Below, in pieces: positions 44,853-49,249 of a stretch of DNA of 64,000 nucleotides. Source of the stretch: Candidatus Thorarchaeota archaeon. Lineage in GTDB: Archaea > Asgardarchaeota > Thorarchaeia > Thorarchaeales > Thorarchaeaceae. The stretch spans positions 160,001 to 224,000 of the forward strand of contig JAFGAR010000081.1 of assembly GCA_016933575.1 (NCBI GenBank), written 5' to 3'. The position numbers were made by a program, and so were the translations under genes. A model generated the notes under the pieces. The model was not told the DNA's origin and did not search any database. It saw only the letters and a program-made list of their open reading frames with translations. Each line of letters begins with the position of its first letter. Positions within the stretch are counted from its first letter, which is position 1.

Positions 44853-45830
44853 TTGGACCGCATCCGTAGTACTGATGATAAGAAGGGAGCTGCCGAATCT
44901 TCCATTGAACTAATTTGTTGCCCAGAGTGTAAGTCTACTACCGTAGTTGAGGATACCACTCGAGGTGAACGAGTGTGCGGCGGTTGTGGTCTTGTACTAT
45001 CCGACCATCGTATTGATACCGGAGCCGAATGGCGTGCATTCAGTACTGAAGAGAGTGACTCTCGAAGTAGAGTTGGAGCACCACTTCGCTATACCGTGCA
45101 TGATAAGGGACTCTCAACAGTTATTGACTGGAGAGATCGGGACACCTCTGGGAAGAAGTTGAGTCCGACACGAAGGTCGGAGATCTATCGATTGCGTAAA
45201 TGGCAGATACGGTCTAGAGTACATTCGAGCATGGATCGTAATCTTGCACAGGCTATGTCCGAACTCGAACGATTGTCCTCACAGCTTGGAATCCCTGAAC
45301 CAATTCGTGAGCTTGCAGCACTTCTCTACAGAAAATCTATCATCAAGAAACTAGTCCGTGGACGAAGTATTGAAGCTATGGTGGCAGCAACGCTCTATGC
45401 TGCATGCAGGATACGGGAAAAACCCCGTCCTCTTGACGAGGTTGCTGATGCTTCGCGTATCGATAGAAAGAAATTGGGACAGTGTTATCGACTTCTTCTA
45501 AGAAATCTAGCAATCAAGATCCCACTCTCTAATCCAGTCGCTTACATCTCCCGTTTTGCATCACAACTCGAACTCTCGAGCCCTGTGCAGCTCCGGACCG
45601 TTGAGATTTTGCAAAGAAGTCGCGATATTGGTCTCACAATAGGTCGTGACCCGCTTGGTCTTGCAGCGGCAGCAATTTACGTCGCCTCTATCATGTTAGA
45701 TGAACGCCGGACACAACGAGAGATTGCTGAGGTCGCAAGGGTCACTGAAGTCACAGTACGCAATCGCTACAAAGAGATCGTAAAGAAGCTCAGTATTGAT
45801 TCCATGGGTCTTGAACCTATAGAACACTGA
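44853..45830 (+). CDS. tfb: Transcription initiation factor IIB
   Basis: CPEC..VCGGCG zinc ribbon, EWRAF, RVGAP, HDKGLST, two cyclin repeats, TEVTVRNRYKE. Confidence 0.97.
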   Translation: MDRIRSTDDKKGAAESSIELICCPECKSTTVVEDTTRGERVCGGCGLVLSDHRIDTGAEWRAFSTEESDSRSRVGAPLRYTVHDKGLSTVIDWRDRDTSGKKLSPTRRSEIYRLRKWQIRSRVHSSMDRNLAQAMSELERLSSQLGIPEPIRELAALLYRKSIIKKLVRGRSIEAMVAATLYAACRIREKPRPLDEVADASRIDRKKLGQCYRLLLRNLAIKIPLSNPVAYISRFASQLELSSPVQLRTVEILQRSRDIGLTIGRDPLGLAAAAIYVASIMLDERRTQREIAEVARVTEVTVRNRYKEIVKKLSIDSMGLEPIEH

Positions 45831-45886: not shown

Positions 45887-46102
45887 CTACCTTCTTCCAG
45901 TCTGTTGGAATGACCAATCGACCTGAACCATTTGTTCTGGGAATCCAAGCTTTGACAAGACGTCTCCAATGACCCCTCTATGATCTCCTTGCAGTTCAAT
46001 ATGGCCATGTTTTGCGGCTCCTCCGCAAGCAAGCTTGGCTTTCAGTTTTGTAGCCAAATCACCAAGGTCAATATTCTTGTCAAAACCTTCAAGAATTATG
46101 TT
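45887..46102 (-). pseudogene. Start-less 3' fragment of aIF1/SUI1 (displaced or duplicated C-terminal 70 codons)
   Basis: Reads NIILEGFDKNIDLGDLATKLKAKLACGGAAKHGHIELQGDHRGVIGDVLSKLGFPEQMVQVDWSFQQTGRR*; 58/69 aa identical to the intact gene at 48905-49249. Confidence 0.93.
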
Positions 46103-47227
46103 TTAGTTTCTAAAGAGTCCTAATGACATTTGGATGTGTTTTTTCATTTCTTCTGACATGCATATTACTTCAGATTGATACTTCTTGAATTCATCACGGG
46201 ATGAGAAATCCAATGTGTGTACAGTAAAACCTGATTTTTTAAAAGCATCAAAGATGGTCTGTACATTCTGTTTTGAGTAATTATTAACAATCTTTCTATC
46301 CAAATTCTTAAGGATTTCATAGCCGTATGCTGTGTAAAGAAACGTATCCCACTGGGGTCTGTTTCTAAGAACAGGTAACTTGATTCGCTCCATCTCTTCT
46401 TGTCTTATCTCTAGAATTAATTTACTCAGTCTTGCACATTCTGCATTCTCAAGGAAATTGTCATTAATGACTATTCCCACAGTAGACCTTCCAGTTTCCA
46501 CTTGGTCACACATTGTTTCAATAACAACAGGTTCGAGAGTTCTCTTTACATTTTCAATACTTGTGTCTGGAGGTATCTCAAGAATAAGTTCCAGCAAATC
46601 CTTTTCTAATAACCCATATTGTCCAAGACTCAATCCGTTTAAGACACTAGTTTGAGCAGTGATATGTGATGTTCTTCCTTTCACAACCTCTAGCTGGGTA
46701 TGAATAGGTTCCCAAGCCTGTATATTCTCTAATGGCTTATATTTTATCTTGTAAGGTGACCCTCTTGTGAATCCCCAGAAGTCATTTGTGTCAAGCCAAG
46801 TACTCACATCACTTCCTATTTGAAAATAAACTGGGTCATCCTCTGATACGTGTTGGAGTGATTCAAAGAGTGGTGTGATATCCCAAGGCATACTCAGAAG
46901 TCCACAAACTGTCACATCAATACTTCTAACATTCTTGAGTCTGGCCAAGGGGCATAGACTCATCTCTGTTAAGTATTGAAATCCATTTAGTTTTAATGAC
47001 CTAAAATTAGTGAAGTCGGCGAGTCCGGAGAGGTCAATAGAAACGTATTTCGGTTCATTATAGCCCTGCATACTAGCTCCATACAGTTCGATATAGTCCT
47101 TTTGATATCCTCGTAAAATTTCCTCTACTTCCGACTGGTGAATCTCTTCTTGTTCGGTTTTAAATTTCAGATATGCCTTTGAACTCATTACGTTGATTTT
47201 TACTGCATCAGTCAATTTAAGACTCAC
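46103..47227 (-). CDS. Leucine-rich-repeat-like protein
   Basis: SIDLSGLADFTNFRSLKL and LCPLARLKNVRSIDV degenerate LRR units; AT-rich. Confidence 0.65.
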   Translation of the reverse strand: MSLKLTDAVKINVMSSKAYLKFKTEQEEIHQSEVEEILRGYQKDYIELYGASMQGYNEPKYVSIDLSGLADFTNFRSLKLNGFQYLTEMSLCPLARLKNVRSIDVTVCGLLSMPWDITPLFESLQHVSEDDPVYFQIGSDVSTWLDTNDFWGFTRGSPYKIKYKPLENIQAWEPIHTQLEVVKGRTSHITAQTSVLNGLSLGQYGLLEKDLLELILEIPPDTSIENVKRTLEPVVIETMCDQVETGRSTVGIVINDNFLENAECARLSKLILEIRQEEMERIKLPVLRNRPQWDTFLYTAYGYEILKNLDRKIVNNYSKQNVQTIFDAFKKSGFTVHTLDFSSRDEFKKYQSEVICMSEEMKKHIQMSLGLFRN

Positions 47228-47277
47228 TGTGATTGTTGATTTATCATCTCCTTGATGAATATTCGAGTGAAGCTAGA

Positions 47278-48051
47278 TTAATCATGCAGACTTCCAAAGG
47301 CGTACTGGTCACGAGATGCTGCGAAGTTAATTGCCAGTAATGGTTCATCTGTTGAGCTTGTGCTGAACACATTGGGCTTATCGAGGCCGCTATCAGTGAG
47401 CGACCATCCCACCATCTCAGTATAGCCGAAGTTGACATCATGGGGAACTGAGAGCTTCCCATTCATGCCCTCAGGGAGGTCTACGAACACATTGAGGATT
47501 GTAAAGAAGGAGAGTTCTACATTCAGACCTGTATCCGTGAAGTTCACGTTCTCTGTGAAGATGATGTTGCAGATGCCTTCATTGGTACTGATTTTGACGT
47601 CCTGACCTGCAAGCTCTGCCCCATTGTCATAAATTAGTGTAACATTCAGATTACGACCATCAATGAAGACCTGATAGTAGGTGGCAGTTCCAAGGATCAC
47701 ATCAATAGATGCTATCTTGTAATCACCCATTCCATCAAGGACTAGATGGTAAGCATCTGGATCGTATGATGGCTCGTAGAGAGAGTAGTGATGATGCATT
47801 CCGGGTTCATACTGAACCACATCTATGGAATAGAGAAGATTGGGATTGTCCACAAAGGTGATGGTGACGTTTGTCGATGGTGCGCGGAGGGCTCTTAGGA
47901 ATAACACAGCATGTTTGGTACTTCCAGCAGGATAGGCGCACTCGTAGTGGAAATGAGTCTGAACCAAGGGGATACCTACGAACACCACCAGACCCACCAC
48001 TACAATGACTCCCACACTGATTGAGACCATTTTTCTTCGTTCCATTCTCAC
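47278..48051 (-). CDS. Membrane-anchored or secreted beta-rich hypothetical protein
   Basis: Basic N-terminus plus hydrophobic helix VSISVGVIVVVGLVVFVGIPLV; N-x-T sequons; GAGGTGA upstream. Confidence 0.7.
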   Translation of the reverse strand: MRMERRKMVSISVGVIVVVGLVVFVGIPLVQTHFHYECAYPAGSTKHAVLFLRALRAPSTNVTITFVDNPNLLYSIDVVQYEPGMHHHYSLYEPSYDPDAYHLVLDGMGDYKIASIDVILGTATYYQVFIDGRNLNVTLIYDNGAELAGQDVKISTNEGICNIIFTENVNFTDTGLNVELSFFTILNVFVDLPEGMNGKLSVPHDVNFGYTEMVGWSLTDSGLDKPNVFSTSSTDEPLLAINFAASRDQYAFGSLHD

Positions 48052-48083
48052 TCACCTCTCACTTCTCGTGTTCGAATTTATGT

Positions 48084-48791
48084 TCATCGCATATTCCCCA
48101 GCATGACAGGGATACGCATAACGAGCATAGCCATGTTCAGACTTAATGCAATTGAGGGAAGTATCAGTCTAGCCTTACTTGCTTGTATCCTTGTTGAACC
48201 GTCTTCCAAGGTGACAAGCGAGATTCCTCTCCTCCCCATTGCCCGAAGCAGTCCACTGGTGATGATGGAGAGCGTCATGGCAGTGAAGAAGACCTCTCCG
48301 CCGCCTATTGGTTGTGCGCTCTTATCATACCGGAGAACATTATCGAAGGCCATCTCAAAGATGACCTCGCCAACCAGTTCAAAATACTCTTTGACTCCAC
48401 GATAGAGTAACGAGCCCAGCTCTCGGGCTGAACTCATCTGAGAGATCTTCTTCAGGGTACTACTGAAGCCGAGGTCAAGCAGGTCATCTATCGTTGTCCC
48501 GAATCGACTGAGAACACTGCTTCCAGTACGTCGTAGCCCTGCACCTAACGCTCCAAGGTCTGCAAAGTTCTCTGCAAGGACTCCACCGAACCTGTTCCCT
48601 GCCCACCTAGCAAATCTTCCAAGACCCTTCGCTGCGGCCCCAATGCCAAAGGAGATACCGTTTGATAATGCTTCGGTCAGGATGAGGTTCCATCCTTGGT
48701 CAGAAGTGATACCCCAGATACTGAAGTTACCGATGTAGTTCCTGTCAACTCCAAGAGCCTGCATGGCACCAAGCAGGATGTGGTCGAACAT
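48084..48791 (-). CDS. Gly/Ala-rich hydrophobic hypothetical protein, possibly the C-terminal remnant of a larger gene
   Basis: GISFGIGAAAKGLGRFARWAG amphipathic helices and hydrophobic C-terminus; visibly GC-richer than flanks. Confidence 0.6.
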   Translation of the reverse strand: MFDHILLGAMQALGVDRNYIGNFSIWGITSDQGWNLILTEALSNGISFGIGAAAKGLGRFARWAGNRFGGVLAENFADLGALGAGLRRTGSSVLSRFGTTIDDLLDLGFSSTLKKISQMSSARELGSLLYRGVKEYFELVGEVIFEMAFDNVLRYDKSAQPIGGGEVFFTAMTLSIITSGLLRAMGRRGISLVTLEDGSTRIQASKARLILPSIALSLNMAMLVMRIPVMLGNMR

Positions 48792-48904
48792 GGGCCACGA
48801 TTTTTGTCCACCCCTCCTAGTCCCCCGACCTCCACCCCCACCACTCCCCTTTTTCCTTTTTTGTTTCTAAGCATGTATAATTGAAACACGTTCTCGAATT
48901 GATT

Positions 48905-49249
48905 CTATCTTCTTCCAGTCTGCTGGAATGACCAATCTATGTTGATTGCTTCTTTTGGAAATCCGAGTTTTTCCAGAACTTCTCCTATATTTGCCCTATG
49001 GTCTCCCTGCAGCTCGATATGACCGTGTTTTGCAGCTCCTCCACAGGCAAGCTTGGCTTTCAACTTCGTGGCAAGGTCGTTTAGATCGATATTTTTATCG
49101 AAGCCTTCTAAGATCAAAGTCAAACGACCCCATTTACGGCGCTCGACAGTCACATTAATTCTTGCCTCTTCCTGAGCGATTGTTTCGCACACACAGAGAT
49201 CCTGAGGCAAACCACAATTCGGGCAGATTCCGCCTTCGTCGTTACTCAC
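48905..49249 (-). CDS. sui1: Translation initiation factor aIF1 (SUI1/eIF1 homolog), GTG start
   Basis: CPNCGLP.DLCVCE N-terminus, RRKWGR, LKAKLACGG, IELQGDH. Confidence 0.96.
   Translation of the reverse strand: MSNDEGGICPNCGLPQDLCVCETIAQEEARINVTVERRKWGRLTLILEGFDKNIDLNDLATKLKAKLACGGAAKHGHIELQGDHRANIGEVLEKLGFPKEAINIDWSFQQTGRR

Follow-up and report, generated by a model that had tools for sequence, protein, structure and literature searches.

A 3-kb islet in the aIF1/sui1 gene of a Thorarchaeota genome: a candidate remnant of an integrative element that supplied a replacement 3′ end

The only full-length aIF1/sui1 gene of a Thorarchaeota (Asgard) metagenome-assembled genome, here G000, is followed by three cargo genes and by a second, start-less copy of its own 3′ part. 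Judged from codon usage and residue patterns, the intact sui1 gene is most likely a chimera of native codons 1–45 and imported codons 46–114, with the partial copy as the recently displaced native end. In the account that we consider rather probable, the islet would be the stripped remnant of an integrative element that supplied the replacement 3′ end of aIF1. The locus lies on a 265-kb contig of G000 (estimated to be 86% complete, with 6.9% contamination), of which a stretch of 64,000 nucleotides, referred to as the window, was analysed; coordinates are those of the window unless a contig is named.

Organization of the sui1 locus

On the minus strand, the order of genes is intact sui1, O235, O257, ORF374 and the partial sui1 copy, followed by the convergent TFB gene. 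The intact aIF1/SUI1 gene (48905..49249, minus strand; Pfam SUI1, E 1.2e-16) has 114 codons and a GTG start. Its codons 1–45 (49115..49249, minus strand), which encode the zinc knuckle and the start of the SUI1 fold, are read as the native 5′ part on account of their identity to orthologs, and its codons 46–114 plus stop (48905..49114, minus strand) as a putative imported replacement 3′ end, based on atypical codons and residues. The partial copy (45887..46096, minus strand; Pfam SUI1, E 1.4e-11) again comprises codons 46–114 plus stop, lacks a start codon and is read as the probable displaced native 3′ end. These two loci are the only sui1 matches in the whole genome, and only the former is a full gene. 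The TFB gene (44853..45830, plus strand; Pfam TFIIB) is by synteny a conserved convergent neighbour and marks the native right flank; the gap between the partial copy and the TFB stop is 56 nt, as at empty sites.

Between both copies lie O235 (48084..48791, minus strand; 235 aa, Gly/Ala-rich), O257 (47278..48051, minus strand; 257 aa, with an N-terminal membrane anchor) and ORF374 (46103..47227, minus strand; 374 aa). A G-rich low-complexity tract (GGGGAGTGGTGGGGGTGGAGGTCGGGGG...) occupies positions 48792-48904 between the sui1 stop and the O235 start, and the O235 frame stays open through it for 25 further codons, as if this were the tail of a longer gene. ORF374 ends upstream of the partial copy in a TAA that shares the frame of this copy; only two codons (AAC ATA), and hence 6 nt, separate it from the junction, and stop and codons together occupy 46097-46105. 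Read-through of this single in-frame TAA, which would fuse ORF374 to the aIF1 C-terminal domain, was considered and rejected, and since the ORF374 homolog on the related contig L057 is inverted, the in-frame placement is probably due to chance.

RSAM, sui1, TFB and MAP are contiguous in 21 loci of the genus, in 19 of 20 further loci of the family from 17 genera and in 14 of 16 Thorarchaeota-type metagenome contigs, the latter obtained in one DNA scan with the conserved native block. The two other metagenome contigs are L097, which ends inside sui1, and L099, which has a different insertion after the stop. The spacing between sui1 and TFB in relatives is 25–100 nt. Since sui1 thus directly adjoins TFB in the sampled relatives, the window carries an insert of 3018 bp (46097..49114) comprising the replacement end, the spacer and the three genes, and this size is identical to the spacing of the sole long direct repeat. 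The GC content is 36–39% at 46000–47200 (ORF374) and 52–53% at 48200–48800 (O235), compared to about 45% nearby. A second sui1 match occurs among 400 Asgard genomes only in G000 and in G019, where it lies at a contig edge; these two are also the only cases among 85 genomes of the family, with none on the 16 metagenome contigs, and the duplication is hence rare. A genome of the same species lacking the insert was not found among 5.8 billion proteins, the best match being 85% identical.

The spacer between sui1 and TFB is also a more general variable spot among relatives. G019 harbors in this spacer a 235-aa ORF (G019:C145:119-826) that is methyltransferase-like as judged by eye only, L099 has a membrane-protein gene (L099:13095-13510) after a typical sui1, and three small ORFs are located in the spacer region of L059 (L059:9359-10280) and L057. 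The long sui1–TFB spacer of G020 was considered as a cassette relic and discarded, as it instead consists of a ~260-nt repeat, two copies of which are also present in L060. The copies of this non-coding, intergenic repeat (L024:1915-2171 in G020, L060:15199-15453 and L060:12596-12775) are 77–81% identical and one of them adjoins an O235/O257-type gene pair in L060; the repeat has no Rfam match and was not found in G000.

Divergence between the two sui1 3′ copies

In a codon alignment, homology of the two copies spans 69 codons from codon 46 (ILEGF...) to the stop. The same residue is encoded by 58 of these, 33 of which differ synonymously, and the other 11 codons differ non-synonymously. Among the first 17 same-residue codons after the junction 15 differ, as opposed to 18 of the remaining 41, and neither copy contains a stop or a frameshift, both being open to the same TAG. 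All of these counts had been given in the initial annotation and were reproduced here, while the span proposed there for the partial copy, 45887–46102, stands through 46096, where clear homology ends, and its last six nucleotides (46097–46102, AAC ATA) are not demonstrably part of the copy. At the nucleotide level the copies are identical at 150 of 207 positions (72%), and a repeat search returned them as one 207-nt direct repeat with 73% identity and a spacing of 3018 nt.

The Nei-Gojobori method yields a pS of 0.853 (38.7 of 45.3 sites) and a pN of 0.113, corresponding to a ratio of 0.13. As this pS is too high for a Jukes-Cantor correction, the synonymous sites are saturated. Pairs of orthologs from the genus average a pS of 0.715 and a pN of 0.09, values that the divergence between the copies equals or exceeds. 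The saturated pS, the ratio of 0.13 and the different codon classes argue that both copies evolved apart before they were brought together. The initial annotation had claimed that this is no recent duplication with neutral decay and had named a dN/dS near 1 as the outcome speaking against it; with a ratio of 0.13 and a synonymous divergence as large as between species of the genus, the claim is supported. Its proposal of long purifying selection in separate replicons can be retained in part: the copies did evolve apart, each in a working gene, but the donor could be another chromosome rather than a distinct replicon. Selection on the partial copy would have acted while it was within the intact native gene and not since its displacement.

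The excess of synonymous differences close to the junction (15/17 versus 18/41) has a hypergeometric P of 0.0017, which becomes 0.007 after correction for the choice of prefix length. Compared to the per-codon expectation derived from 210 ortholog pairs of the genus, 7.9 of 17 differences were expected and 15 are seen (P ~0.001). The excess is therefore statistically real, albeit weaker in an unrestricted two-sided window scan (P 0.09). The longest identical run within the 207-nt repeat measures 16 nt, which is ordinary given a median of 15 nt in ortholog pairs.

The dense divergence near the junction described in the initial annotation is thus genuine, but it belongs to a mosaic and not to a gradient. 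Codons 46–63 and 86–104 are unusually divergent, with an identity between the copies of 0.63 (10th percentile of the 210 ortholog pairs) and 0.56 (below all 210 pairs), respectively; codons 64–85 are ordinary (0.85, 90th percentile), and the terminal codons 105–114 are near-identical (0.93, above all 210 pairs). The last 33 nt of intact sui1 (48905..48937, minus strand; DWSFQQTGRR plus stop) match those of the partial copy (45887..45919, minus strand) at 31 of 33 positions, the sole long near-identity between both copies, and a 33-mer search found no extra copies in the genome beyond the two sui1 ends. Both termini encode QQT with the codons CAG ACT, found in 0 and 3 of 21 orthologs. This near-identical stretch, which the initial annotation had passed over, points to a later exchange, either of the two copies with one another or with this host lineage.

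In the junction-proximal block, the intact gene and G020 have a 21-nt run of minority codons in common (GGC TTC GAT AAA AAT ATC GAT), and G020 is the sole ortholog whose codons 46–63 are nearer to those of the intact gene than to those of the partial copy. By our own arithmetic from the observed codon frequencies, the chance of such sharing is ~4e-4 across 21 comparisons. G020 carries this rare-codon block without the cassette. The presence of the same rare codons in G020 indicates that the recoded block is inherited and no local invention, and the shared run suggests that the proximal block forms an allele class that moves independently of species, in which case the dense recoding would reflect the meeting of two such classes.

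Origin of the two 3′ ends

To compare both ends with the genus we used codon typicality, defined as the share of 21 genus orthologs that use the same codon. The partial copy has a typicality of 0.49 in codons 46–63, 0.41 in codons 64–103 and 0.46 in codons 104–114, the orthologs themselves have means of 0.45, 0.45 and 0.43, and the 3′ part of the intact gene shows 0.24, 0.36 and 0.43, respectively. The conserved codons GGT (19/21), TTT (19/21), AAG (16/21) and GAC (17/21) are of the majority type in the partial copy and of a minority type in the intact gene. In codons 46–63 the partial copy is up to 0.91 identical to orthologs, whereas the 3′ part of the intact gene never exceeds 0.74; the partial copy furthermore has a 28-nt identical run in common with L011. 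On the protein level, the partial copy follows the residue pattern of the genus (G86 V87 ... E99. M101 V102 Q103), where the intact gene reads A86 N87 ... K99 E A I N I, and none of the residues A86, N87, K99, A101, I102 and N103 was seen among the homologs listed, whose tails were inspected.

Codons 1–45 of sui1 resemble those of an ordinary member of the genus, with an identity of 0.80 and a pN of 0.075 to the 21 orthologs; their typicality is 0.52 compared to an ortholog mean of 0.60, and codons 16–30 are somewhat atypical too. The pN of the partial copy to orthologs is 0.093, equal to that of ordinary ortholog pairs (0.09), and hence little unconstrained time can have passed since displacement. 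The atypical codons and residues of the intact 3′ part, set against the typical displaced copy, suggest that the former is of foreign origin. In its TFB gene, too, G000 diverges most within the genus, so that part of this atypicality could stem from the divergence of the whole lineage.

Related loci

ORF374 has one close relative (P0122, 58% identity), which is encoded on the JGI contig L057. There, relatives of O235, O257 and ORF374 (52%, 39% and 58% identity) form an island with the gene order of the window, except that the ORF374 relative is inverted and a further gene is present. The island ends in a sui1 fragment that is intact and, as in the window, begins with codon 46. The proximal block of this fragment is genus-typical (0.46), and the fragment resembles its own host clade and not the partial copy of the window. 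Because ORF374 is inverted in L057, the element-side junction sequence is not conserved between the two islands. In L059, a full sui1 gene with an equally atypical proximal block (typicality 0.24) is followed by foreign small genes in place of TFB. Comparison of the L057 fragment to the 3′ end of L059 reveals the same polarity as in the window, since 14 of the first 18 codons differ and the last 27 are identical.

Contig ends coincide with the sui1 stop in G019 and G011 and with codon 43 in G352. In G019, the sequences of two contigs agree through the third base of the sui1 stop codon and differ beyond it; a continuation of G019:C151 was not found within the G019 bin. These contig breaks are compatible with polymorphism at the site and at most suggestive of excision.

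Two further observations concern sui1 sequences elsewhere. On the reverse strand of L057 (~1830-1870), 70–110 nt past the stop of the sui1 fragment and thus downstream of it, an out-of-frame LTLERRKWG remnant matches sui1 residues 33–41, which lie just upstream of the junction codon; it may be the scar of an earlier rearrangement at the site. The metagenome protein P0043, from a 1255-nt contig, is a sui1 of the Thorarchaeota type that after GDH changes over to a tail resembling that of other archaeal groups (LRKIKELLVKLGFDEESID); it might be a further chimera, with its breakpoint at another place in sui1.

Cargo genes

Searches of Pfam, NCBIfam, PHROGs and PADLOC yielded no accepted family match for O235, O257 or ORF374; the cargo gave two rows in all, phrog_14001 (E 0.12) and a PADLOC methyltransferase (E 0.038), and Rfam gave no matches on the insert. 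O235 has 45 relatives, several of which are proteins 458 to 1952 aa in length that carry the domain at their C-terminus. Homologs of O257 follow an O235-type gene in L057 (39% identity) and L060 (30%), and in L060 this pair is part of a defence-like island beside Spt5. No family of toxins matched the cargo; DUF637 and PT-TG came up as atlas leads with a score of just 0.82. O235 and O257 could possibly represent a toxin tip and its partner.

Language-model and fold leads only describe ORF374 as LRR-like. Its family is multi-copy and fast-evolving in the genus, with paralogs that are 22–33% identical. Two 1710-bp contigs of the same genome, G000:C91 and G000:C92, each consist of little more than one 389-aa ORF374-like gene, which suggests that this multi-copy family breaks the assembly. 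In an independent Logan assembly, ORF374 adjoins an upstream 195-aa gene. ORF374 is also present in SRR13394437.

Searches for a recombinase and for junction sequences

Neither the 3018-bp insert nor the visible 8.8 kb of the L057 island contains a recombinase gene. Genome-wide, G000 has one match to tyrosine recombinases (PF00589), located on another contig, and the 86%-complete genome has zero matches to serine recombinases (PF00239). At the 5′ junction only GAAGG is shared by both sites and no longer identical core is present. The short-crossover recombinase that the initial annotation had suggested from the lack of a long identical att core is conjectural. The repeat search of the insert found no terminal inverted repeats. 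The initial annotation had pointed to ~49118 and ~46100 as places where imperfect inverted repeats might occur, and neither junction has meaningful ones: an 8-nt inverted pair near the junction at 49117 is off-centre, occurs in the hybrid site only and has ~0.08 occurrences expected by chance.

Proposed origin of the islet and alternative explanations

In the account we lean towards, a 3-kb islet would have inserted in aIF1/sui1 between codons 45 and 46. Its leading end would have brought its own codons 46–114, so that the working gene would consist of native codons 1–45 and imported codons 46–114, and the native codons 46–114 would have been pushed 3 kb downstream, start-less, to their place beside TFB. 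Both 3′ ends would have diverged to synonymous saturation before they met, each within a functional aIF1 gene, and the relic would still be intact because the insertion is young relative to this divergence. The dense synonymous difference at the junction would be due to the imported end belonging to a distinct allele class, which departs from the genus-conserved codons GGT TTT GAC AAG .. GAC CTC, and a later exchange between the copies or with the host lineage would have rendered the last 33 nt near-identical. The islet itself would be what is left of an integrative element of the type that e14 and phage 21 form in icd, its recombinase lost. The geometry can be read from the data, whereas the enzyme and the direction of events we infer. 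In favour of this account are the empty sites in sampled relatives, the single full sui1, the genus-typical partial copy next to an atypical intact 3′ part, the L057 island at the same codon, the atypical block of L059, the rare codons of G020 and the e14 architecture. Counting against it are the absence of a recombinase, the lack of a 5′ core beyond GAAGG, the unconserved element-side junction, the divergence of G000 for TFB with its atypical codons 16–30, and the terminal 31/33 identity, which fits a crossover near the stop better.

The same geometry might have arisen without any site-specific recombinase ever being involved, which we regard as unlikely but to be taken seriously. One old insertion, perhaps by homology-facilitated illegitimate recombination anchored in sui1, would then have spread by homologous recombination between related Thorarchaeota, with RSAM and the sui1 5′ part as one flank and the displaced fragment and TFB as the other, and each transfer would refresh the fragment with sequence of the recipient. 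Such a course would account for two islands without an integrase in a setting where G000 has one tyrosine and zero serine recombinase matches, for a junction codon and cargo order common to both islands, yet an unrelated element-side junction sequence, for the block-mosaic nature of both 3′ copies, for the L057 fragment and the L059 end that agree over the last 27 codons and differ in 14 of the first 18, and for the rare-codon block in G020 without the cassette. It sits less well with the rarity of the duplication (G000 and the contig-edge case among 85 family genomes, 0 of 16 metagenome contigs) and with cargo proteins that at 39–58% identity imply an old split, yet both fragments are intact; site-specific turnover that is still active would likewise be compatible with the contig breaks seen at codon 43 in G352 and at the end of sui1 in G019 and G011. 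Improbable in our view is the reverse geometry, in which the crossover took place in the near-identical last 33 nt, the intact gene is wholly native and the partial copy is island cargo from an earlier host of the same genus. That the 3′ ends are 31/33 identical, have the unique QQT codons in common and are closer than any ortholog pair speaks for it, as do the two G019 contigs, which part only after the third base of the sui1 stop, and the divergent lineage of G000. It requires, however, that the essential gene of the host is the outlier (codons 46–63 and 86–104, with six residues in no listed homolog) while the fragment is typical, and that an untranslated fragment stayed intact in two islands whose cargo is 39–58% identical; moreover, the L057 fragment resembles its own host clade and not the partial copy of the window. 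The reverse geometry is less parsimonious.

That the copies arose by tandem duplication in situ and diverged afterwards, or that the arrangement is a chimera of the assembly, is extremely improbable. Nothing specific favours it beyond the 6.9% contamination estimated for this metagenome-assembled genome. Against it stand a saturated pS in spite of flanks that are collinear with relatives, the lack of any identical run above 16 nt by which the copies could mislead an assembler, the three genes that separate the copies, the independent Logan assembly with ORF374 beside the 195-aa gene, and the presence of the same architecture on an unrelated JGI contig. A different question is whether the recoding itself is functional. 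An element might have to encode the aIF1 peptide without re-creating the host target (codons 48–56), so that the occupied site is not targeted again and the repeats do not recombine, and the imported C-terminal 60% of the protein, whose 11 changes are clustered at 86–104, may alter start-codon selection; we consider this quite doubtful. Suppression of deletion by recoding, as put forward in the initial annotation, is not needed to explain the observed pattern: a longest run of 16 nt is nothing out of the ordinary between orthologs, the copies are most alike at the end away from the junction, and the recoded block is an inherited allele also found in G020.

If the chimera reading holds true, 60% of the coding sequence of the sole aIF1 of this Asgard archaeon was imported, along with a small accessory cassette, and not even core translation factors are exempt from serving as landing sites and having a part replaced through horizontal transfer. 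This would be relevant for phylogenies with sui1/aIF1 among their markers. That G020 has the rare-codon block in common with the window suggests that allele scars of such replacements persist in genomes from which the insert has gone, and the locus may serve as a natural test of the interchangeability of aIF1 C-terminal variants.

Comparison with known systems

Elements that integrate into tRNA genes of archaea and bacteria carry the 3′ part of their target in attP and thereby restore a working target. The islet, as we read it, would similarly restore the 3′ part of a conserved target. In tRNA genes, however, a block of identity extends from the crossover to the end of the gene, whereas the replacement in the window is constrained at the protein level only and is therefore free to diverge at synonymous sites. 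At rhs and cdiA polymorphic toxin loci, a new 3′ end is inserted along with a cassette, and the old 3′ end is kept downstream as an orphan tip. The displaced 3′ end of the window, likewise kept as an orphan, and the O235 domain at the C-termini of much longer proteins are reminiscent of this arrangement, but the displaced gene is a housekeeping factor and not a toxin, and no toxin or immunity family is assigned to the cargo.

The closest parallel to the architecture proposed here is e14, and also phage 21, in the icd gene of E. coli, where the element provides a replacement 3′ end and icdC remains as a pseudogene (PMC13626634, citing Hill et al. 1989). The copies differ mostly synonymously in both systems, and if the window is read as proposed, both have an insert within the 3′ portion of a protein gene that contributes a replacement end in frame, while the native end survives on the far side as a pseudogene without a start; in MG1655, which we used as a control, icd and icdC are identical at 153 of 165 nt, with 9 synonymous and 2 non-synonymous differences. 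The window displays the flanking direct duplication of the 3′ part, the empty site in relatives and the intact in-frame upstream copy, with a 3′ part of putatively foreign origin, that characterize elements of the e14 type, and lacks an integrase or excisionase in the element and a short identical core at both junctions. e14 retains intE and xisE, whereas the insert of the window is without a recombinase, and the 5′ junction of e14 has an identical 11-nt sequence (ATGCTGCGCCA) where the window has only GAAGG. The copies of e14 are 93% identical, those of the window 72% and synonymously saturated, and the insert of the window is just 3 kb in size, has cargo without family matches and targets the sole aIF1 of an Asgard archaeon. 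By analogy, the mechanism would be one already known from e14 and icd; what would be unusual is the host, a member of the Asgard archaea, and the target gene, aIF1.
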